A stretch of 64,000 nt of DNA from an uncultured Acidimicrobiaceae bacterium (GTDB lineage: Bacteria; Actinomycetota; Acidimicrobiia; Spongiisociales; UBA5794): assembly GCA_964397045.1 (NCBI GenBank), contig CAYNHF010000021.1, positions 17,653 to 81,652 on the forward strand, read 5' to 3'. The translations under genes and the position numbers were made by a program. The notes under the pieces were generated by a model, which was not told the DNA's origin, made no database searches, and worked only from the letters and a program-made list of their open reading frames with translations. This document shows, one piece after another, positions 4,751-64,000 of the stretch; within the stretch, counting starts at the first letter, position 1; each line of letters starts with the position of its first letter.

Positions 4751-6940
4751 TCAACCGCGGAATCGTTCCCCGGACTCAGCGTGAGTTCGCAAGATGTCTG
4801 CCGGTTCGAACCGGTTGCCGTACGCGATGGCGAGTTCGTCCATCCGAGTCACCACGGCGTCTGCGCCGAGAGTGTCGACCCACATGAACGGGCCACCTGT
4901 GTACGGCGGCCAGCCAAGGCCCAGGACCGCTCCGATGTCGCCGTCGCGGGCCGACCGCAGCACCCCCTCTTCCAGGCATTTCGCGGCTTCGTTGATGAAG
5001 GGGTAGAGCAGCCGGTCCTGGACGTCCTGGATGGGAGAATCGGGAGCCGGTTGTGCTCCAAGGAGGTCGTAGACGTCCTCATCGACGTCGCCTCGCTTGC
5101 CCTTCTCATACCGGTAGTAGCCGCGGCCGGCCTTTCTCCCGAGATATCCAGCAGCCACCAGCCGTTGCAGTGGCTCGGCCTCTCCCGTGCGTTCCCCGAG
5201 CGTGGGTGCGACGATGAACCCGATTTTGGCACCTACGTCGATCCCGACCTCGTCGCTGAGAACCGCCGGCCCCACCGGAAACCCGAACTGGGTGGCCGCG
5301 GCGTCGATGTCTTCGATCTTGGCTCCCTCTCCGACGAGTCGGAGGAACTCAGCCACGTAAGGCATGAGTACCCGGGTGGTGTAGAAACCGGGGCTATCGC
5401 TCACGACGATCACCGTCTTGCCCTGGGCTCGCCCGAAGGCAACACAGGTTGCCGTCACCCAATCGGCCGTCGTGTCCGTCACCACGACCTCGAGGAGCGG
5501 CATCTTCTCGACCGGGGAGAAGTAATGCATGCCAATGACCTGCTCCGGCCGTTTGGCCCCGGATGCGATCTCTCCGATCGGGATCGATGACGTATTCGAA
5601 GCGAAGATCGTGTCCTCGTCTGTTGCGGACTCCACGTCTTCGAGGATTGCCTGCTTCAGCTTGAGATCCTCGAATACTGCTTCGATGACGAGGTCCAGGT
5701 GTCTGAACCCTTCGTAGTCCACCGTCGCGGTGACCCGGTGCATCGCAGCCCTGGCTTCACCAGGGGTCAGTCGGCGGCGTTTCTTGCGGGCTGCCACCTC
5801 GCGTGACACATGAGCCAGAGCGCGCCCCGCGGCTTCGAATTCGACCTCCTTCAGACGAGTGGCAACCCTTGTGTTCAGCGTGTTCACGGTGGCGATTCCA
5901 GCGCCCATGAGGCCGCCACCGATCACTCCGACCCGCGACACGGGACGAGCGGCAGTGTCGCCAGTGACTCCACTTTCATGCTTCATCTCCTGGGTCGCGG
6001 CGAAGATCGACCGCAGCGCCTTCGACTCCGGGGACGTCACCAGCGGGGCGAACTGCCGGACTTCCTCTGCATAGCCGGCTGCGGCTCCCTCGTCTATCCC
6101 GACCCGAATCGCGGTGATGGCGGCGGGAGCGGCCGGGTAGTGCCCGCCCGTCTCGGCCAGCATCCGCTCTTCTGCCTTCGAAAAGAGCAGCTTGCGACCT
6201 ACCGGGTTCTCTTCGAGCGCCAACTGCTGGAGGTGCGAAGGGGCAAGCCAGGTCTTCATGCGCGTTGCGCGCCCGGGTTGCGACACGCCTGACCCTGCAG
6301 CCTCCAGCACCCGGCGGCGCGCTACCTCGACGAGGACTTCCTTGGGGCACACCTCGTCGACGAGTCCTATGGATCGCGCCTTGCGCGGGCGGACGGACCG
6401 GCCGGTGAGGATGAGGTCGAGTCCTGCGGCGATGCCGACCAGTCGTGGCAGGCGCTGGGTGCCGCCGGCGGCAGGTATCAATCCGAGCCTGGTTTCGGGC
6501 TGCCCGAACTGGGTCACTGTGGCATCGTCCGAAGCGATTCGGCTGCTGCAGGCCATCGCGAATTCCAAACCGCCGCCCAGACATGCGCCGTGAATGGCGG
6601 CAATCACCGGCTTGCCGTGCTCGGTGCTGAGGGCTTCGAGTCGACCGAATACCTCCTGAGCTGCGACGATTCCGGCTGCGGCCTCTTCCGGCGTCTGAAT
6701 AGTCGCCAGCCAGCGGAGGTCTGCGCCGACGATGAAGCTGTTCGGCTTCGCTGAGGTGATCACCACCCCGACGATTGCATCGTCGGTTTCACAGCGATCG
6801 ATGATGGCGGCGAGGTCCTCCGTCAGTTCTGGGGCCAGCGAGTTGACAGATTCACCGGCCCGATCGATCCAGACGACGGCCACTCCATCGGTGCCTACGT
6901 CGATCGAAAAGTGTTCGAGCCTCGAGTCAGTGGTGGACAC
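4751..6940 (-). CDS. fadJ: fatty-acid oxidation complex alpha subunit (enoyl-CoA hydratase/3-hydroxyacyl-CoA dehydrogenase)
   Basis: Crotonase motifs (GACLGGGLE, PETRLGLIP), Rossmann GGGLMG, ASNTSS, GMHYFSPV; GTG start at 6940 preferred to the ORF-track start. Confidence 0.9.
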   Translation of the reverse strand: MSTTDSRLEHFSIDVGTDGVAVVWIDRAGESVNSLAPELTEDLAAIIDRCETDDAIVGVVITSAKPNSFIVGADLRWLATIQTPEEAAAGIVAAQEVFGRLEALSTEHGKPVIAAIHGACLGGGLEFAMACSSRIASDDATVTQFGQPETRLGLIPAAGGTQRLPRLVGIAAGLDLILTGRSVRPRKARSIGLVDEVCPKEVLVEVARRRVLEAAGSGVSQPGRATRMKTWLAPSHLQQLALEENPVGRKLLFSKAEERMLAETGGHYPAAPAAITAIRVGIDEGAAAGYAEEVRQFAPLVTSPESKALRSIFAATQEMKHESGVTGDTAARPVSRVGVIGGGLMGAGIATVNTLNTRVATRLKEVEFEAAGRALAHVSREVAARKKRRRLTPGEARAAMHRVTATVDYEGFRHLDLVIEAVFEDLKLKQAILEDVESATDEDTIFASNTSSIPIGEIASGAKRPEQVIGMHYFSPVEKMPLLEVVVTDTTADWVTATCVAFGRAQGKTVIVVSDSPGFYTTRVLMPYVAEFLRLVGEGAKIEDIDAAATQFGFPVGPAVLSDEVGIDVGAKIGFIVAPTLGERTGEAEPLQRLVAAGYLGRKAGRGYYRYEKGKRGDVDEDVYDLLGAQPAPDSPIQDVQDRLLYPFINEAAKCLEEGVLRSARDGDIGAVLGLGWPPYTGGPFMWVDTLGADAVVTRMDELAIAYGNRFEPADILRTHAESGERFRG

Positions 6941-52981: not shown

Positions 52982-53770
52982 CTAACCGGCCAGGGTTCCG
53001 GCGAATACCTGCCACGCCAGGAGCGACTTGGCGACGAGGCTGAGCAGGATGTAGACCGATTCTCCGAAGAGGTAGTCACGCCACCTACCAACCTGGCGGT
53101 ACTGGAGCACCATGTTGATGGCGAAGCTATTGAAGAAGATAAACAGTGAGAAGAAGATCCCGTAGACGAAGCCGGGAGGAGACGCGTCTGTGGTCGGGCT
53201 GAAGAGATAGACGGCGATGGCGATCCAGGGCACCGCTCCGGCGATCACGCCGAACCAGTAGGAGAGCCAGTTCGGACGGCCCGGATTCTCGTACTTCTCC
53301 ATCAGCAGGCCAAAGAGGATCATCGAGGCGTTGACGCCGGCCAGGGCGATCAGCGCGGCGATGTCGTTGATCCCGGTGAGCATGGCGATCAACACGATCA
53401 TCAGGGACGAGCTGAACGAATACTCGATCCACCGGGCGTAGTTGCGGTCCTTGAGCAGGTTTGCCTTGTACCAGGGGAACACGCCGGGCGAGGCGATGAT
53501 GAAGTGGGCAGCCGCCGACATGAAGAGGAACAGCGCAACCCCCCAGGCGAGGCTCACGGTGAAGAGTTCGGTGTAGGTCGGATCGGTCACGCCGGGGGGC
53601 CCATTCAGGAACGTGGCACCGACCGGGAGGGAAAAGTCGGTCGCCAACACCAGAATGAGGACGCCCTGCAGGAGATGCAGCGTGCCCATCAGCACGTTGT
53701 AGCGACGTAGCCGGGTGAAGCGGCCCTCCGGGACTGCGAGGGCCTCCCCGTCGACGGTTTGCGCGGTCAT
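52982..53770 (-). CDS. heliorhodopsin
   Basis: LRRYN...HLLQ, AHF, NYARWIEYS, LSLVAKSLLAWQ (retinal Lys); RBS GAGAGGA; ATG 53770. Confidence 0.93.
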   Translation of the reverse strand: MTAQTVDGEALAVPEGRFTRLRRYNVLMGTLHLLQGVLILVLATDFSLPVGATFLNGPPGVTDPTYTELFTVSLAWGVALFLFMSAAAHFIIASPGVFPWYKANLLKDRNYARWIEYSFSSSLMIVLIAMLTGINDIAALIALAGVNASMILFGLLMEKYENPGRPNWLSYWFGVIAGAVPWIAIAVYLFSPTTDASPPGFVYGIFFSLFIFFNSFAINMVLQYRQVGRWRDYLFGESVYILLSLVAKSLLAWQVFAGTLAG

Positions 53771-53984
53771 CTGAGTCCTCTCGGTGGATCGGGAAACGAT
53801 ACGGGTACGGCGCTGAACGGCAATTCGGATGAGTCCTCGAGGCGCCAACACGGAACCTCTTTGGATCTCCATGTGCGCGCGCTGTCCTGGCACTGCGGCG
53901 ACTCTCAACGACTTCTCGACGACTGGTGTGATCGCAGCAAGGCTTGAGGCCGGCTTTCGATACCGAGTGTCGCAGGCCCGTCGC

Positions 53985-55435: not shown

Positions 55436-55560
55436 CACCACCGTCACGCGCCCGCGCTGACTCGGCCAGTTCGACAGTTGTCGGCTGTCGAGATGGCAGC
55501 GTGGGGCCGATGGGGCATTCGGCTCTAGGGACCAAGCTCGCTGGGTACTACGGTCGCGAG

Positions 55561-55857
55561 GTGGATTCGAAAGTTCTTGAATCAAGATCGGTTGAGGCCA
55601 GGGCGGCAATCTTCGCCGCTCTCAGCGACCCGCTCCGGCTACGGGTCCTCGACGCGCTTGCTGCCGAAACCCGGTGTGTATGTGAACTCCAGGAGACGGT
55701 GGCGGTAGCCCCAAATCTGCTGTCGTACCACCTGAAGGTCTTGCGCGATGCCGGCCTCGTGGAGGGTTCGAGACGTGGTCGATGGGTTGACTACAGGTTG
55801 ACCGGAACCGCCCGGGACATAATCTGCGAAGCCCTGCCGGCGGGTCTCCTGCCGTGA
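55561..55857 (+). CDS. arsR: ArsR/SmtB repressor with CVC metalloid site
   Basis: ALSDPLRLRVL, RCVCEL, LSYHLKVLRDAGLV; TACGGT 6 nt before GTG; GTGA overlap with acr3. Confidence 0.88.
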   Translation: MDSKVLESRSVEARAAIFAALSDPLRLRVLDALAAETRCVCELQETVAVAPNLLSYHLKVLRDAGLVEGSRRGRWVDYRLTGTARDIICEALPAGLLP

Positions 55858-56918
55858 CCGCCTCCAGGGAGGATCAGGCGGTCCTCGAGCGACTGTCGGT
55901 TCTGGATCGGTTCCTGCCGCTGTGGATCGGGCTGGCGATGCTGCTCGGCCTTGCGCTGGGGCGGCTCGTTCCCCAACTCAATGACGGCCTCGACGCAATG
56001 AAGGTCGGCAACGTGTCATTGCCGATCGCCATCGGGCTGCTGGCCATGATGTACCCGGTGCTGGCGAAGGTTCGCTACACACAACTCGGCACCGTCACCG
56101 CAGACCACACCCTCCTCGGTACCTCGCTGGTGCTCAATTGGGTCATCGGTCCATTGCTGATGTTCGGCCTGGCCTGGCTGCTGCTCCCTGATCTGCCCGC
56201 CTATCGCACCGGGTTGATCATTGTCGGGCTGGCCCGCTGCATCGCCATGGTGCTCATCTGGAACGACCTTGCCTGTGGCGACCGAGAAGTAGCGGCCGTC
56301 CTCGTCGCGCTCAATTCTGTGTTCCAAATCCTGGCGTACGCCCTGTTGGGCTACTTCTATCTCAGCGTCCTCCCTGGCTGGCTTGGGTGGAGCACCGAAA
56401 CCCTCGACATCTCGATGTGGGAGATCGCCCGCGCCGTCCTGATCTTCCTGGGGATCCCGCTCGTCGCGGGGTTCCTCACCCGGCTCTGGGGAGAACACAC
56501 CCACGGCATCGACTGGTACGAGACTCAGTTCCTCCCCAGGATCAGTCCGCTGGCGTTATGGGGTCTGCTGTTCACGGTGGTCCTGCTGTTCGCCTACCAG
56601 GGTGAGGCGATCACCTCCCGCCCCTGGGACGTGGTCCGGATCGCGCTACCGCTGCTCGCCTACTTCGGGATCATGTGGGGTGTGTCTTTTGCTCTCGGGC
56701 TCCGCCTTGGCTTCAGCTACCCGCGGAATACGGCAGTGGCCTTCACCGCCTCGGGCAACAACTTCGAACTCGCTATTGCGGTGGCCATCGGCGTGTTCGG
56801 TATCACCTCGGGTCAGGCGCTCGCCGGCGTCGTCGGCCCTCTCATCGAGGTGCCGGCTCTCGTCGGCCTCGTCTACGTCGCCCTGTGGGCGAGACGGAAG
56901 TTCTACCCGAGCGCGTAG
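55854..56918 (+). CDS. acr3: ACR3-family arsenite efflux transporter
   Basis: LDRFLPLWI, MMYPVLAKV, ARCIAMV, NNFELAIAVA, GPLIEVP. Confidence 0.95.
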   Translation: MTASREDQAVLERLSVLDRFLPLWIGLAMLLGLALGRLVPQLNDGLDAMKVGNVSLPIAIGLLAMMYPVLAKVRYTQLGTVTADHTLLGTSLVLNWVIGPLLMFGLAWLLLPDLPAYRTGLIIVGLARCIAMVLIWNDLACGDREVAAVLVALNSVFQILAYALLGYFYLSVLPGWLGWSTETLDISMWEIARAVLIFLGIPLVAGFLTRLWGEHTHGIDWYETQFLPRISPLALWGLLFTVVLLFAYQGEAITSRPWDVVRIALPLLAYFGIMWGVSFALGLRLGFSYPRNTAVAFTASGNNFELAIAVAIGVFGITSGQALAGVVGPLIEVPALVGLVYVALWARRKFYPSA

Positions 56919-57182: not shown

Positions 57183-58544
57183 GTGGGCAATTTCGCGGCT
57201 TTGAAGACCCAGGCTGAGGCAGCGTTGGCGCTGTCGAGAGAGGAGGACGGCTACTCCCTTGGCTTGCAGGCGTTCAAATATGGCTACCCGGCCATCGAGA
57301 TGTATCGCAGCCGCTGGGAATGGCACTACGACCGAACCAGCCCCAACTACAACGGCCCGGTGAACCGCCTGGGCCACACCAAGCGTGCTACGCACGAGGA
57401 CCGCTTCGTAGTGACGCCGATCAATGACGCGGTGTACTCGCGGGCCTTCGTCGACCTGGCAGTGGAGCCGGTGGTGATCGAGGTCCCGAAGATCGAAGAT
57501 CGCTATTGGACCGTGCAGATTGCCGACTTCTACACGAACAGCTTTGCCTACATAGGGAAGCGGCAGGGCGACGGCGCGGGTGCCTACGCATAGGTCGGGC
57601 CCGATTGGCGTGGTGTGCTCCCGAACGGACTCAACCGAAGCGTCACCGCTCCGACGCCGGTCATTGCGTTGCTGGCCAGGGTCGCGGTCCTGGACGACGA
57701 GGAGGCGCCCGCGGTCGGGTTGCAGAAGCAATTCAAGCTCACGCCACTGAGCTTGTGGTCCGGCAACACAAGCGAAGCCGCCGCGGCCGCAACGCCTCTG
57801 CCGTATCTCGATTTCAAAGACGGTGATTCGCTCGACTTCCTTCGGATGTTGAACTGGGTCATCACGGAGAACCCGCCACCGCCCACGGACGCCGGGGCCC
57901 TGGGACTGTTCGAACGGATCGGCATCAAACCAGGAACCGAGTTCGACGCCGACCGCCTGCATCCTGCGATGGTCGACGGCTTGCGGCGGGGGATCGATCA
58001 GGGGCTGGTGTCTTTGCTAGGGGAGATGCCGTTCTGCGTTCCCAACGTCAACGGATGGTTGATCCCGGATCCCAGCCGATCGGGCAACTTCGGCACGGAC
58101 TACCACCTGCGGCTGGTGACGGCCGAGATTGGACTGCTGGCCAACGACGCACGCGAAGCGCTGTACATCGGATGCTTCATGGACAACGCGGGAGAGCCGC
58201 TGGTCGGTGGAAGGGAGTACACGATTCACTTTGACGAGGACCAGCTTCCACCGGTCGATGAGTTCTGGTCCCTCACGATGTACACCCACCCGCCGGGGTT
58301 CCTCACCGAGAGCAGCACGAACCGTTACGCCCTGGGGACTCTGACGCCGGGCTTCGCGCACAACGAGGACGGGTCGGTGGATATCTACATTCAGCGGGAG
58401 TCTCCCGGCCCAGGGAGGGAGTCCAACTGGCTACCCACCACGCCCCAGGGTGAGCTGTTCCGGATCATCTTCCGGATGTACAACCCCGGCCCCCATATCC
58501 TCAACGGCACGTGGAAGCCGCCTTCGATAGAACGAGTCGCCTGA
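57183..58544 (+). pseudogene. DUF1254/DUF1214 protein interrupted by one in-frame TAG (57591-57593)
   Basis: YGYP, VVTPINDAVYS, DFYTN before the stop and VGPDW, NDAREALY, FWSLTMY, NEDGSVDIYI, SNWLP after it, all in the same frame. Confidence 0.8.
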
Positions 58545-58587
58545 CGGCGGTGTGCCCGCCTATCGACACGTCGAAGCGACCTGCTGG

Positions 58588-58815
58588 TTATCGCTTGATG
58601 AGTTGTTTGAATCCGGCGACTCCCATGAACAGCAGAGGTCGATCGACGATGTCGGGATCGTCGTCCAGTTCCTCTCTGGTGAGGTCGTTGAGTTTCAGGT
58701 TCATGGAGCTGACAACCGTCTGGTCGAATTTCGGGTTGTCGCGGTTAGCGAGGTTGCCTAGCTCGTTGGGGTCTTCCCACAGGTCGTAGAGCGCCACGTT
58801 GCTGTCTCGGTAGAG
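58588..58815 (-). pseudogene. 3' remnant of a paralogue of the 61817-63505 sulfatase
   Basis: LYRDSNVALYDLWED...DPDIVDRPLLFMGVAGFKQ matches the C-terminus of the intact gene; similarity stops abruptly near 58815. Confidence 0.85.
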
Positions 58816-58928
58816 CCTGGTGGGAACCTTTCGCCATCGAGTATCTGACACGCTCCCAGGGACCTCCGGCCCTGGGAGACCTTCCCGCGCTGCGACAGGA
58901 TGATCGAAAGGACATCGAGGAGGGCAAT

Positions 58929-59636: not shown

Positions 59637-59758
59637 TCAGAATCCCGAAACATTGCCCTGGAATCGCCGTCCGACACCGTACCCGGATCCGTCCCGGTAG
59701 CGGCCACGTCGGCGGCGAGTCGCTGTACGTCACACGGGTTGGGGTCGCTCGGGTTCAT

Positions 59759-59823
59759 TGGCGGAGGCGGACGGGAATCGAACGCGCCAGGGGGTTTGTC
59801 GCCCCCTCAACGGTTTTGAAGAC
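59759..59823 (-). pseudogene. selC: 3' part of tRNA-Sec (anticodon loop to CCA), att-like scar 1
   Basis: Minus strand GT-CTTCAAA-ACCG (UCA anticodon), long variable arm AGGGGG/CCCCCT, T loop TTCGATT, CCGCCTCC-GCCA; no 5' half; one T-stem mismatch. Confidence 0.85.
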
Positions 59824-59880
59824 GGACTTCCCGTTGCCTTCTGTTTTCGTCTAGACCTGTCTAGACCTGGTGACACAAAC

Positions 59881-59948
59881 GGGTTCAGTGCCGTGTAGAC
59901 CCTTCCAGGCCCGTTGAGTTGCTTTGGCTACTCCACGCTGTGGCACCG
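59881..59948. repeat. conserved ~68-nt block following scar 1 (putative element end), copy 1
   Basis: Aligns with 61698-61764 at roughly 59/68 positions; ends in GTGGCACCG. Confidence 0.8.
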
Positions 59949-60060
59949 GTAACCGAAGCGGGTCACGATCCTCTGACCGGTTCACGGTTCCAGTCTCGTC
60001 GGACGCTTGGCCGAGGATGCCGAGCCTCGCCATGGGAAGGCCGAAGCAAGGTGACCGTGT

Positions 60061-61365
60061 TCATTCGTCCGGATCGACACCACGGGCCTTGAGCATCTTC
60101 TTGACGTCGAGGCTAATGCCATCGTCAGGCCAAATGTTGGTGATGTCACGGTCCACGTCGGGTGGGTAGTACTCGTGCGGGTCGAGTTCCATGTCGCGGA
60201 GAAACTGCTCCTGCTGGTCCTCGCGGGGTCTCGTGGGATCGGGCATCCTGACGGTATCGGGCAACTGGCCTGGCGGGAACAGAAGACGCGGGTCGAGAGC
60301 ACCAACTGGTGAGCCGTGCGGTAGGTTGGCCTTGCGCCCCCAGATGGCGTCCTTCGTGACGTTGACCACCACCACGTCGGGTGCACCGAACATGAACAAC
60401 CCCGGCCAGTGCGCCCTGACCTCGGCGATGGATTCGCCCATCAGGGTGTCTTCGAAGTTTGTGTGGGTGATCATCGCTAGACGGGGATTGACTTGCTTGA
60501 ACAGGTACCCCGCTGCGTAGTAGGGCGTGTGGTAGGTGTCGATTGTGTATTGGGTCATTTCGACCTGGGTGCCCCACTTCATGGCGAGCAGCGATGGGGT
60601 GTCCATTTGGCCTTCGCTGACGAAAACGTCCACATCCTGGGAGTACTCCACCGTCTTCTCGTCGGGTCGCCCGTCACCCGTCCACACGAACGACAGGTTG
60701 TGATCTTCCCAATCGAGCCGGTACGCCGAAGCACCGTCTTTGACGTGTGACCGTGGCCAGTGGCGGACCTTCACCCCGTCTTGGTCGTAGCAAATGCCGT
60801 TCTCGTCGCGCCAGTCGAACTCCGTGACTTCGATTTCGAGTCCGTCGCCAACCGGAATCGATTCGAAGTTCTCTGTGTGCCACACCATCATCTCTTGCAT
60901 CTTCTCCACCACATGGCGGGTACCCAGGTGTGGTTGCGATCCAGATGGGCCGTATACCCGCAATGGTTTGAAGCGACCCATCGTCGCGGTGAACGGGTAC
61001 ATGTAGGGCAGGTCCGCGTAATGGTCCACGTGGAGATGGCTGATGAAGATGTCGTACATCTCGGCCGGGAGCACCCCCATGCCCAGGATGTTCTTCACTG
61101 AGCCATTCCCGAGATCGAAGAAGAAGCGGCGCGGCGACATTGCACCGGTTCCCAGCTCGACCATGATGGAAGTGCCCGATTGGCTTTGGGTGGGCGGCCA
61201 TGGCGTGCTGCCGGGAAACGATACCCGCATCTCTCCCTCGGCCAGCGGCTCACCCGGCGGAAAGTAGTTGCGGTTCGTGACCGAGGGCGTTGGTCGATAC
61301 TCGGCGGGCAGGGAGATTCCGCCTCCCGGCCTGCGTCCGTACGGGTTGCTAGGAACATCCATCAT
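60061..61365 (-). CDS. MBL-fold metallohydrolase (RNase Z/AtsA-like)
   Basis: FDLG.G, SHLHVDHYAD, WPRSH, WTGDG, YHT, ITH; GGAGGG RBS before ATG 61365. Confidence 0.85.
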   Translation of the reverse strand: MMDVPSNPYGRRPGGGISLPAEYRPTPSVTNRNYFPPGEPLAEGEMRVSFPGSTPWPPTQSQSGTSIMVELGTGAMSPRRFFFDLGNGSVKNILGMGVLPAEMYDIFISHLHVDHYADLPYMYPFTATMGRFKPLRVYGPSGSQPHLGTRHVVEKMQEMMVWHTENFESIPVGDGLEIEVTEFDWRDENGICYDQDGVKVRHWPRSHVKDGASAYRLDWEDHNLSFVWTGDGRPDEKTVEYSQDVDVFVSEGQMDTPSLLAMKWGTQVEMTQYTIDTYHTPYYAAGYLFKQVNPRLAMITHTNFEDTLMGESIAEVRAHWPGLFMFGAPDVVVVNVTKDAIWGRKANLPHGSPVGALDPRLLFPPGQLPDTVRMPDPTRPREDQQEQFLRDMELDPHEYYPPDVDRDITNIWPDDGISLDVKKMLKARGVDPDE

Positions 61366-61408
61366 GACCCTCCGATCAACGAAGCTCTGTTCGCTCAACA
61401 TAGCCAGA

Positions 61409-61430
61409 GAGGCGGACGGGAATCGAACCC
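61409..61430 (-). pseudogene. selC: 22-nt tRNA-Sec T-arm/acceptor fragment, scar 3
   Basis: gaggcggacgggaatcgaaccc identical to 61571-61592. Confidence 0.7.
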
Positions 61431-61529
61431 CTCGCCCCAGTGCGTGGAGCGGATTCGGACTCGGCCTCCAGCCCAGTGAGGGCTACGACCGGGGGGCGGT
61501 TGGTCGGCTCGATTTCTCGTTTCGAAGGC

Positions 61530-61563
61530 AGAAGGTCCGGTCCTTGATGGGATCGGACCTTCT
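61530..61563 (-). terminator. 14-bp hairpin just 3' of scar 2
   Basis: AGAAGGTCCGGTCC-ttgatg-GGATCGGACCTTCT. Confidence 0.6.
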
Positions 61564-61569
61564 ACTCGG

Positions 61570-61630
61570 GGAGGCGGACGGGAATCGAACCCGCCAGGGG
61601 GTTTGTCGCCCCCTCAACGGTTTTGAAGAC
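61570..61630 (-). pseudogene. selC: 3' part of tRNA-Sec (anticodon loop to acceptor, no CCA), att-like scar 2
   Basis: Same sequence as scar 1 with an intact T stem GCGGG/CCCGT; upstream sequence forms no D arm or acceptor 5' strand. Confidence 0.85.
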
Positions 61631-61697
61631 GGGCTTGTGGTGTTCCGACTGTCTCCGTCTGCTGCCGTCTAGACCCGGCTAGGCGTTGTGGCGCAGC

Positions 61698-61764
61698 GGG
61701 TCCAGTGCCGAGTAGACCCTTCAGGGCCGTTGAGTTCCTTTGGCTACGCCACGTCGTGGCACCG
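61698..61764. repeat. conserved ~68-nt block following scar 2, copy 2
   Basis: Matches 59881-59948; followed by a second GGCACCG. Confidence 0.8.
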
Positions 61765-61816
61765 AGTTCGGCACCGGACTATGCCCGCTCGTCAGTCCGT
61801 CGAGGCAGCCTGCGGG

Positions 61817-63505
61817 TTACTGCTTGATGCGTTGTTTGAATCCGGCGACTCCCATGAAGAGCAGGGGTCGATCAACGATGTCCGGATCGTCACCCAGTTC
61901 GTCTCTGATGAGGTCGTTGAGCTTATCGTTCATGGAGCTGACAACCGCCTCGTCAAATTCCGGGTTGTCACGGTTGGCGAGGTTGTCTATCTCGTCGGAG
62001 TCTTCCCACAGGTCGTAGAGCGCCACGTCGTTGTCTCGGTAGAGGTCATCCGTCGTTGCTGGTTGGTTGTGTTCGTTGATGGCGTGGTACCGGATGAACT
62101 TGTAGCGGCCGTCGTAGACGCCGCGCATGACATGACGAGCGTCGAAGTGTGAGTCGCGGATCGAGTTGACGAGGCCTTTGGCCTTGTCGAGTTTGCTCTG
62201 CTCCTCCTGGGCGGCGTCTTCGTCGTCGCCCAAGTCGATCATTCCGGAGGCAACCTCGGCAATGAATTCCATATCAACCGCCCACAACACGTCGTAGGTG
62301 TACAGCGCACCTGTTCCGGGTTGTGTAGTTGAGCCGCGAGCGGTGAACACCTCGGGGTCGGCGACAATGCCTGCTACATCGAAGCCTCGTAGCTGCGGGT
62401 CACGTTGGGTTTGCTGCTCCGCGCTGACCCCGGCCCAGCGAAGCAACGTTGGTGCAATGTCAACGCTGGTACCAACGGCATCGGTGGTGCGACCACCAGC
62501 AAAGTCGGGATGCACGACCACGAACGGAACGTTCCACCCCTCCTTGAACGGGATGGCTCCCTTCTGGCGCATCCCGTGCCCAGCAACCATGTCACCATGA
62601 TCAGCGGTGTACACAATGATGGTCCGGTCGGCTTGACCGCTGGCTTCGAGCGCATCGAGCACTGCCCCGATGTGCCGATCCACGTCACGCAGACAATTGA
62701 GGTAGTAGTTCACGTACCGTTTCCACATGTCGTGCCGATCCGTCGGCATCTCCCCGTAGCTGATGTCACACAGGGTGCGGTAGTAGCGGACCGCCTCGGG
62801 ATGCTGGTCGAGCGGGTCATCGAACGACGACGGGAGCTCGATGTCCCACTGCTGCTGGTAGATCGGGTCGTCAGGTTCGGTGGTGATCTGCACCAGCCCG
62901 CTCACCTGGGTGTCCCCGGTGCCGTCAGCGTCGAAGAACATGACGTCGTGCGGGTTACAGAAATTCACCGCAAGGAACCACGGCTGCGATTCGGCGATCT
63001 TCCCAGCCCGGTCCGTGAGCCATTCCGCGGCGTCGGCTGCGATCTCACCATCACGTTCATAGCCGTCGCGGACCTCACCCCAGATCTCACCGAAATCCTG
63101 GTAATCCGAGAACCCGTACGGCTCCAATACGTCCCGAGTGTGCTCCCCAGTAATCACGCTGAGATGCCACTTCCCCTTGAACGCCGTGTAATAGCCGGCG
63201 TCACGCAACATGTGCCCAACGGTACGAACTTCCTCCGGGTCGAGGTCGTCTATCCAGGCCATGTTGGTGTTGTCCCACATCCCGTTCTGCACCGCATGGA
63301 CTCCGGTGTACATCACCGAACGCGACGGAGTACACAACGCCGTATTCACCTGGTAGTCGTCGAAAACCAACCCGGCGTCCTCGAGACGCTGCCGATTCGG
63401 TAACTCGTAGCCGTCTGGACGGGGTGCGTGGGCATAAGTCTGATCCGTCGTCAAGAACAGAATGTTGTATCGGCCAGACTCATCCGACTCCACTGGACCC
63501 GTCAT
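61817..63505 (-). CDS. formylglycine-dependent sulfatase (no signal peptide seen)
   Basis: NILFLTTDQ, LCTPSRSVMYTG (CxPxR), GKWHL, NPHD, ADHG, K; ATG 63505 with GGAGGGG RBS. Confidence 0.92.
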   Translation of the reverse strand: MTGPVESDESGRYNILFLTTDQTYAHAPRPDGYELPNRQRLEDAGLVFDDYQVNTALCTPSRSVMYTGVHAVQNGMWDNTNMAWIDDLDPEEVRTVGHMLRDAGYYTAFKGKWHLSVITGEHTRDVLEPYGFSDYQDFGEIWGEVRDGYERDGEIAADAAEWLTDRAGKIAESQPWFLAVNFCNPHDVMFFDADGTGDTQVSGLVQITTEPDDPIYQQQWDIELPSSFDDPLDQHPEAVRYYRTLCDISYGEMPTDRHDMWKRYVNYYLNCLRDVDRHIGAVLDALEASGQADRTIIVYTADHGDMVAGHGMRQKGAIPFKEGWNVPFVVVHPDFAGGRTTDAVGTSVDIAPTLLRWAGVSAEQQTQRDPQLRGFDVAGIVADPEVFTARGSTTQPGTGALYTYDVLWAVDMEFIAEVASGMIDLGDDEDAAQEEQSKLDKAKGLVNSIRDSHFDARHVMRGVYDGRYKFIRYHAINEHNQPATTDDLYRDNDVALYDLWEDSDEIDNLANRDNPEFDEAVVSSMNDKLNDLIRDELGDDPDIVDRPLLFMGVAGFKQRIKQ

Positions 63506-63693
63506 GTCGGACACTCCCCTCCATCGGCTAATTCGCTCCCGAGCATAGATGCACCAACTGCCCGGACGGCCGAGTACAGCTAGATCGCAGTGATGTCGCG
63601 GCCGTGGCCGTGAGCGCCCAAACCACCGGCTTTTCGGTTCAGCCGATCGAGATTCGCGGCTGGTCGGGTAGCGTGGCTTGCAGGGAGGGTGGC

Positions 63694-64000
63694 GTGGACA
63701 TTCGATTGCTTGCTGTTGGGGCTACCGCCATCGGGATCTACGCCCTCGTCTCGGGGCGTCTGAGTCGGAGCATCATGACGGGTCCGATGTTCTTCGCGGC
63801 AGTCGGGGTCGTGGTGGTCGCCGTTGGGGTCGGCGAGGAGCCGACCGGTGATGTCGCCGGAGTGGCGCAGGTGGCATTGGAGATGACGCTCGCCCTCGTG
63901 CTGTTCACCGACGCTATGGCCACCAACATCGCATCGTGGCGGGAAGAAGGCAAGCTTCCCAGCCGTCTCCTGGTCCCGGGGATGCCGTTGATCATCCTCG
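63694..64000 (+). CDS. cation:proton antiporter (NhaP/CPA1-like), truncated by the window edge
   Basis: GGGAGGG RBS, GTG, hydrophobic N-terminus, LALVLFTDA...LPSRLL.PGMPL. Confidence 0.75.
   Translation, partial: MDIRLLAVGATAIGIYALVSGRLSRSIMTGPMFFAAVGVVVVAVGVGEEPTGDVAGVAQVALEMTLALVLFTDAMATNIASWREEGKLPSRLLVPGMPLIIL

Follow-up and report, generated by a model that had tools for sequence, protein, structure and literature searches.

Described systems and the selC locus

Tandem accretion at the 3′ end of a target gene has been described for the cis-mobilisable elements (CIMEs) of the ICESt1-related family in Streptococcus thermophilus (PMC5704250). Here we report an array of comparable layout at selC, the gene for selenocysteine tRNA (tRNA-Sec), in an uncultured Acidimicrobiaceae bacterium. 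It lies at the right-hand end of a 64,000-nt stretch of contig CAYNHF010000021.1 (assembly GCA_964397045.1, positions 17,653 to 81,652; hereafter the window) and extends beyond it. Our preferred reading is that two small CIME-like elements with att flanks and no integrase, either remnants or satellites, accreted in tandem at the selC 3′ end; we give it a probability of roughly 0.55. It would be a clean example of a tRNA gene collecting accessory genes in an uncultured marine actinobacterium.

Like CIMEs, the two units of the locus are flanked by attL- and attR-type ends, have no integration or transfer genes and stand in tandem with a hybrid att site between them; the history proposed for CIMEs, consisting of integration, decay and new integration (PMC5704250), would be common to both. 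Unlike in the S. thermophilus case, both units lack an integrase, no ICE (integrative and conjugative element) or IME (integrative and mobilisable element) adjoins them, they measure only 1.8 and 3.7 kb and include no decayed module. The host is an uncultured marine actinobacterium and the target is selC.

The tRNA-anchored islands of Prochlorococcus have been attributed to successive integrations, with scattered partial tRNAs and degenerated elements (bioRxiv 10.1101/2020.12.28.424599). These tycheposon islands resemble the selC locus in their marine, streamlined host, in the outward displacement of older elements and in the large share of integrase-less cargo. However, a tycheposon brings its own integrase and replication module, and the remnants of such elements "lack clear boundaries", whereas the boundaries in our locus are sharp and two full sets of att-like ends surround one or two cargo genes. 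Another relevant system is the 13-kb H47 island of Escherichia coli, whose excision and integration were shown experimentally (PMC3191183). It is also a small island flanked by extensive imperfect direct repeats and has no recombinase of its own; recombination functions supplied in trans were proposed for it. It is not described in that work as a stack of units at a tRNA gene.

Integron cassettes, like the units of the locus, are gene-sized, lack an integrase, have a recombination site each and are arranged in order on a fixed platform. In contrast to integrons, there is no intI or attI beside the array, the head of the array is a tRNA gene and there are two units only. The recombination site here is the 3′ part of a tRNA gene with long direct-repeat arms, following the attP/attB logic of lambda-type systems, whereas the integron attC is a folded single-stranded site. 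The long hairpin of the module designated X (see below) is situated at the unit end opposite to the one where attC would be and corresponds to no Rfam family. The locus is not an integron.

Among actinobacterial elements integrating into tRNA genes, pSAM2 and SLP1 have attP-attB identity segments running from the anticodon loop through, and in some cases beyond, the tRNA 3′ end, which is comparable with the 61-87 nt found here. Both encode int, xis, replication and transfer functions and measure 10-20 kb, unlike the units of the locus. The structure looks like what is left of repeated site-specific insertion, a representative of an already known kind, and not like a new gene-capture system.

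Truncated tRNA-Sec copies and the intact gene

A 67-nt direct repeat (97% identity, repeat finder) on the minus strand makes up core copies 1 and 2 (Table 1). The selC-derived part of each copy begins with GTCTTC, that is with the last two nucleotides of the anticodon stem and the start of the loop (two bases ahead of the CTTCAAA anticodon loop), and continues to the acceptor end. Over this part the copies agree with each other at 60 out of 61 positions; core 2 is identical to the intact selC (61/61), while core 1 differs from it by a single T-stem mismatch (60/61). Six further nucleotides (AAGTCC in copy 1, AAGCCC in copy 2) are common only to the two copies. The proposal of an earlier note on this DNA that the repeats are att-type duplications of the selC 3′ part starting at the anticodon loop is thus borne out.

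With the Rfam tRNA-Sec model, copy 2 scores 39.9 bits and copy 1 scores 31.6 bits (minus strand). Both values are below the gathering score of 47 bits because the 5′ half is absent or replaced by non-pairing filler, as in truncated copies. Neither copy folds into a complete cloverleaf: there are mismatches in the anticodon stem, and the D-arm is missing from copy 1 and substituted by unpaired filler in copy 2. ARAGORN called no tRNA in the 64-kb window. We considered copy 2 as a divergent but true tRNA-Sec and rejected this, given its score, two anticodon-stem mismatches, the lack of a D-arm and a genuine selC nearby. An 18-mer from the T-arm and acceptor occurs three times (0.16 expected by chance), and a third, short T-arm/acceptor copy, overlooked in the earlier note, is located at 61409-61430. 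In annotation, the truncated tRNA-Sec copies should not be entered as genes, and selC can be flagged as an integration hotspot in this clade.

The intact gene is found on a 12.7-kb JGI metagenome contig (L001, also L067) which reaches 8.2 kb past position 64000. The tRNA-Sec gene (72.2 bits) occupies L001 positions 5996-6087, equivalent to about 65276-65367 of the window numbering on the minus strand. It is therefore about 1.3 kb past the window end, upstream of both partial copies and in the same orientation, in agreement with the prediction made from the window that selC should lie to its right on this strand. This is where accretion at the selC 3′ end requires the gene to be, and its position supports that model. 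In this respect the arrangement corresponds to that of a tRNA-targeting integrative element, with selC re-formed and same-orientation 3′ copies at the far ends.

A single mismatch in 4494 nt separates the window from the JGI contig. The 11.4-kb ENA contig L002, from an independent assembly, differs from the JGI contig by seven mismatches in 8722 nt, and the same array is present in contigs of four samples at 99.9% identity; four metagenome contigs encode the metallo-beta-lactamase (MBL)-fold protein described below. The locus occurs in sequencing runs of marine and marine-sediment metagenomes.

Homologous ends of the two units

Read in the orientation of the tRNA, the locus starts with selC, its GCCA trailer, hairpin h1 and module X1, followed by the Na+/H+ exchanger gene (opposite strand) and the sulfatase gene, block 2 and spacer 2. 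This is unit A (3.7 kb). Core 2, hairpin h2 and module X2 come next, then the MBL-fold hydrolase gene, block 1, spacer 1 and core 1, which is followed by GCCA and a native-like trailer. The second unit, B (1.8 kb), holds the hydrolase gene only, in line with the earlier observation of a single gene between the copies. X1, the hairpin and the intact selC together correspond to about 65116-65367. The suggestion of stacked units also stands: there are two, with homologous ends, different cargo and no integrase in either.

Table 1. Coordinates of the array components and of adjoining cargo genes in the window
Feature	Position	Strand	Remarks
Second-sulfatase remnant (last ~75 codons and 35 nt after the stop)	58553..58851	-	repeat finder
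Trailer after core 1, GCCA (59759-59762) + 22 nt	59737..59762	-	25/26 identical to the intact selC trailer
Core copy 1	59763..59829	-	selC 3′ part 59763-59823 + 6 nt AAGTCC
Spacer 1	59824..59879	-	two GGTCTAGAC motifs, candidate arm-type sites
Block 1, P-arm-like module	59880..59948	-	sharp outer boundary at CGGTGCCAC
MBL-fold metallo-hydrolase, 433 aa, cargo of unit B	60061..61362	-	PF12706
X2, 106-nt module	61409..61514	-	103/106 identical to X1 adjoining the intact selC
Copy 2 trailer with strong hairpin (h2)	61515..61569	-	fold; hairpin about 61527-61565
Core copy 2	61570..61636	-	selC 3′ part 61570-61630 + 6 nt AAGCCC
Spacer 2	61631..61696	-	one GGTCTAGAC motif and degenerate copies
Block 2, P-arm-like module of unit A	61697..61764	-	repeat finder and alignment
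Sulfatase, 562 aa, unit A gene 1	61817..63505	-	PF00884, E 4e-43
Na+/H+ exchanger, unit A gene 2	63694..64000	+	leaves the window; full 421 aa on L001 6404-7669

The right, P-like end of each unit consists of the block and a spacer with GGTCTA(G)AC repeats. In the direct reading, both spacers, which lie to the right of the copies, contain GTCTAGACC motifs. Outside the GGTCTAGAC motif, identity between the spacers is about at the background level. The 68-nt blocks agree at 61 out of 69 positions (88%) and terminate in GGCACCG, which is doubled in copy 2. The spacer motif and the conserved block reported earlier to the right of each copy are thereby both recovered.

The left, P′-like end is formed by the tRNA 3′ copy, a terminator-like hairpin of its own and module X. 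The copies end as had been described previously, with CCA (as GCCA) after copy 1 and a terminator-like hairpin, lacking a T run, after copy 2. Hairpins h1 (following the intact selC) and h2 are unrelated in sequence (58% identity, equal to background), and both are strong folds situated directly after the tRNA end. Core 1 together with its trailer is 97.7% identical to the intact selC over 87 nt and diverges from it after the 26-nt trailer. Judging by this match, the core 1 trailer is probably the original chromosomal sequence that was once located downstream of selC.

Module X2 lies 46 nt upstream of the MBL start codon. An inverted T-arm-like motif forms its 5′ end, and the 23 nt at its other end are a copy of the T-arm and acceptor of selC. 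X1 is followed by GCCAATGA, as selC is. X folds as a long hairpin with an energy well under that of shuffled controls (z about -4) and has no match in Rfam at E<=1. It may be the scar of an older insertion by an integrase with a T-loop crossover, carried along in the left arm of the family, or, alternatively, it may be a working recognition element.

Alignment of the segment from selC position 37 to the X1 end with that from core 2 to the X2 end gives 86.6% identity over 224 nt, and block 2 to core 2 aligns with block 1 to core 1 at 80.7% over 197 nt. Background identity is reached in the 60 nt beyond the block and likewise in the 60 nt that follow X (about 58-63%, the level of unrelated sequence under the same scoring). 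The identity between the units is a mosaic: 98-100% for the cores, 91% for the 5′ part of X, 100% for its 3′-terminal 74 nt (97% for X overall) and 88% for the block. Combined with the unrelated cargo of units A and B, this mosaic points to two related but distinct elements and not to one recent local duplication. A core copy bounds each unit, so that attL/attR-type ends with their P′-like and P-like parts have been kept. Joined head to tail, the two ends of a unit would give an attP-like region of about 340 nt. Scans of the units with promoter and terminator consensus sequences found nothing over chance.

Other selC loci

A scan of 185,579 species genomes for exact matches to an anticodon/variable-arm word found 53 selC loci; the source genome was not among them. 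Identical 5′ halves are found in tRNAs of Acidimicrobiia and Acidimicrobiaceae metagenome-assembled genomes (MAGs), which suggests an Acidimicrobiia-like actinobacterium as the host. Extra selC 3′ copies, downstream and in the same orientation, are present at 8 of the 30 actinobacterial loci.

Several of these loci contain an element with an integrase. A 7.1-kb element (L025/L032) has a gene for a 417-aa tyrosine integrase abutting selC and also encodes a TrwC relaxase, a 10.8-kb element (L040/L058) has a frameshifted integrase gene, and in a 3.7-kb element (L015) the integrase is truncated to 258 aa. At L027, integrase fragments lie beside selC with no extra selC copy. Partial copies at L032 and L058 are followed by short C-terminal fragments of an integrase, a sign that newer elements are stacked in front of older, decayed ones. 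Taken together, the integrase-bearing, frameshifted, truncated and fragment loci form a decay series. The elements with intact or decaying integrases share with our locus the target gene and the left boundary of the repeat, which is also GTCTTC. Since selC integrases with this crossover decay and stack in related MAGs, the same process is a natural reading of the present array. We also considered the X/hairpin region as a 3′ remnant of an integrase gene, as at L032 and L058, and rejected this because tblastn at E<=10 found nothing there.

Integrase-less units with a single open reading frame (ORF) are located between selC and a partial copy in two Acidimicrobiaceae MAGs (0.64 kb at L017, 0.70 kb at L048). 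The small ORF (within L017 300-1120 and L048 1-900) codes for a membrane-anchored or lipoprotein-like product, and the partial copy is of the anticodon-loop type. At L047, a 28-nt partial copy is found about 1.06 kb downstream of selC. At L028, a short T-arm/acceptor copy stands alone, 162 nt past selC. L028 (1-200) and L032 (5401-5620) contain mini-inserts of about 90-130 nt that are enclosed by 23-36 nt direct repeats of T-arm/acceptor and trailer. They have a layout like that of X (core, hairpin, insert and T-arm/acceptor copy), after selC or a partial copy, with an inner sequence unrelated to X.

IMG/VR contigs L008/L009 (IMGVR_UViG_3300033168_000020) and L010 carry prophage-like elements at selC with the integrase gene directly after the tRNA. 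The repeat at their far end comprises only about 30 nt of T-arm and acceptor. These contigs represent a second class of selC-targeting integrases, with a T-loop crossover. The viral elements share the target with our locus, and their short T-arm/acceptor repeat resembles the end of X. Unlike in our locus, in both the MAG and the viral elements a tyrosine integrase gene abuts the tRNA 3′ end and the arms have no detectable similarity to the block or X.

Searches for an integrase, for the modules and for mobility

The absence of an integrase from the window, as stated in the earlier note, was confirmed by tblastn with four selC-associated integrases and by a six-frame profile hidden Markov model (HMM) search, which likewise found none on the JGI contig; the HMM was built from these few sequences only and is not exhaustive for very divergent recombinases. 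The integrase expected close to selC is accordingly missing for at least 8.2 kb beyond the window.

Words from the block, the junction and X gave no hits in viral contigs, and BLAST of the modules against the 53 genome loci, plasmids and phages found neither block nor X. The matches of the att module on plasmids of Tsukamurella and Arthrobacter are genuine selC genes beside selD/selA/selB. Among 241 million metagenome records, the junction word was found in the source contig only, besides two chance matches inside coding regions and one unrelated partial selC with different arms. Fifteen viral loci with relatives of the selC-associated integrases have no tRNA, selC fragment, block or X nearby. 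The expectation that the block would turn up with different cargo elsewhere (viral contigs, genome loci, plasmids, phages or metagenomes) was not borne out in these searches. Absence of selC and of an integrase downstream, together with a block never accompanied by other cargo, had been named as grounds for preferring a simple local duplication: selC proved to be present, but the integrase is absent and the block was not found elsewhere.

An empty site could not be located by synteny, as no flanking gene has a homologue in the 53 genome loci. Mobility was checked in assembled Logan contigs (about 5-10x depth, broken at repeats), in which neither a circle joint nor a deletion joint was seen. 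A joint from 61522 to 59737 (going back 1786 positions), seen in two runs, was evaluated as a possible circle junction and rejected. The inserted letters are those of hairpin h1, so the joint is the intact-selC region mapped onto its paralogous segments and not a circle.

Origin of the array

In the scenario that we favour, tandem accretion of two CIME-like elements, a tyrosine integrase of the parent family would recombine in the anticodon loop of tRNA-Sec. Two related circular elements, each with an attP that comprised block, spacer, core, hairpin and X and measured about 340 nt, would have recombined with selC or with an att site of the resident unit. With every insertion, a functional tRNA with a terminator of its own would have been restored and a partial tRNA copy pushed away. 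The hybrid site between the units would then consist of the right arm of one, the core and the left arm of the next, and the far end of the array would hold the displaced tRNA 3′ copy with the original chromosomal trailer. The integrase gene would have been deleted later, or the units may never have carried it. From the anatomy of the junctions we infer that a tyrosine integrase made them, that the block and X are its arm regions, and that the enzyme was either lost or supplied in trans. The units appear to be fixed now.

A number of observations weigh against this scenario. Neither unit retains an integrase fragment or any other remnant of a mobility gene, and the non-coding gaps, of 46-190 nt each, leave no room for integrase debris. 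An origin by deletion would hence need two clean deletions, both sparing the att region of about 340 nt. For this reason, it may be that the units never had integration or transfer genes. Decay does not account for the perfect identity of the 3′-terminal 74 nt of X, for which either a function or gene conversion has to be invoked. The genomes, viruses and plasmids searched yielded no further copy of the block or X, and no autonomous parent of the units is known. In the low-depth assembled contigs, neither an excision product nor a strain lacking a unit was seen, nor any polymorphism of the array.

One competing account is a local duplication, in which one integrated element was doubled via recombination between tRNA-derived repeats and then underwent differential gene loss or replacement. 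Unequal crossing-over between identical cores of 61-87 nt would yield a junction of block, core, hairpin and X, as inferred from the anatomy of the array, and an 86% identical sulfatase fragment just outside the array shows that local duplication and rearrangement have taken place here. The perfect identity of the cores and of the X 3′ part could also reflect ongoing gene conversion. Nevertheless, the units share no cargo at all, and the hairpin and spacer are at background while X is at 97% and the block at 88%, which a single duplication with uniform decay afterwards would not predict. Their trailers differ as well: unit A starts with the native-like 26-nt trailer and unit B is without it. 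We thus consider this account, which the earlier note had kept as its alternative, unlikely; it fits poorly with a mosaic of 100%, 91%, 88% and background identity around unrelated cargo. A chimeric join of unrelated contigs caused by the repeats was evaluated too, since short-read assemblies break at repeats, contigs L003 and L004 start in the X2/core 2 region and Logan contigs are fragmented there. As the JGI and ENA contigs both span the array and agree with each other almost completely, an assembly artefact is excluded for practical purposes and its chances are very remote.

The other account, put forward in the earlier note, invokes active minimal cassettes, att-plus-cargo units which are inserted and excised by an integrase encoded elsewhere, with selC acting as an integron-like platform. 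Both units are indeed compact and gene-sized, with complete ends of about 340 nt and without mobility-gene debris; conservation of the block and X clearly exceeds that of the sequence next to them, and single-ORF units without an integrase are seen at selC in two other MAGs as well. The H47 island, which is integrase-less and for which host-supplied functions were proposed, provides a precedent (PMC3191183). On the other hand, there is no cognate integrase in the 64-kb window or in the 8.2 kb past position 64000, the block and X never occur with other cargo or as a free attP, and the contigs of the four samples have the same array (99.9%) with no empty site or circle joint. Moreover, only two units of the family are known. 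Active cassettes are therefore a doubtful explanation. In its widest form the idea would make selC of marine Acidimicrobiia a gene-capture platform, where a trans-acting tyrosine integrase serially inserts and excises units that combine one or two ORFs with an attP of some 340 nt, the perfectly conserved, tRNA-like X being its recognition element. We regard this as highly doubtful; if true, the platform would be a tRNA-based functional analogue of the integron.

With tandem accretion as the preferred reading, the sharp boundaries and the two preserved sets of att-like ends make the locus a good substrate for asking whether such units are dead remnants or satellites that can be mobilised in trans. 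If they are mobile, tRNA-anchored arrays would offer streamlined genomes without plasmids and prophages a route for gene shuffling, next to the one outlined for tycheposons. If they are fossils, which is more likely, the array is an ordinary footprint of repeated integration, of use chiefly for annotation.

Cargo genes and genomic neighbourhood

The cargo of unit B, the sole gene between the core copies, codes for an MBL-fold hydrolase. Its homologues are named ribonuclease Z (JGI) or, for those with 62% identity, GntH-like (NCBI). The closest homologues (90%, 88% and 77% aa identity) are encoded on contigs with different neighbours, namely MarR/MFS genes, a second MBL gene with MscS, and a run from DivIVA through ClpX. 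Neither core, block nor X is present near these homologues in the relatives, where DNA homology is confined to the ORF.

The closest homologues of the sulfatase in unit A (88-89% aa identity) adjoin a transketolase gene. DNA homology begins 40 nt ahead of the start codon and ceases 10 nt past the stop codon, and no core, block or X was found beside the sulfatase homologues in the relatives. Occurrence of the homologues in other contexts indicates that both cargo genes are common in related organisms and located elsewhere there. The two contigs with these sulfatase homologues (L070 and L071) both end soon after the gene, and their last 150-190 nt are unrelated to the block. This suggests that a repeat or a variable region follows the sulfatase gene in those organisms too.

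Just outside the array lies what remains of a second sulfatase gene. Its 263-nt part 58553-58815 is 86% identical to 61782-62044, and no block or core follows the remnant. Its presence indicates that the flank has been rearranged. Two adjacent ORFs in the same flank (57183-58544, plus strand, 21-nt gap) code for DUF1254 (136 aa, covering 78 of 133 profile positions) and DUF1214 (309 aa) proteins. A stop codon may have divided a single gene into these two ORFs, as would fit a decaying flank. Two 204-aa ORFs on either side of the array were compared as possible paralogues and rejected.

Past selC, the JGI contig contains genes for a methyltransferase, two unknown proteins, an LMWPc phosphatase, a helix-turn-helix protein and cation transport. 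The LMWPc (ArsC-like) phosphatase gene (L001 2803-3429) is on the opposite side of selC from the genes for an ArsR-type regulator and an ACR3-type (SBF family) transporter, which lie at 55501-56918 (plus strand) on one side of the array. These arsenic-resistance-type genes may have been split apart by the insertions.

A heliorhodopsin gene is located 6 kb from the array (52982-53908, minus strand) and gives a full-length match to the PF18761 profile (E 1e-103). The G+C content of this stretch is slightly lower, at 0.60-0.62 as compared with about 0.65.

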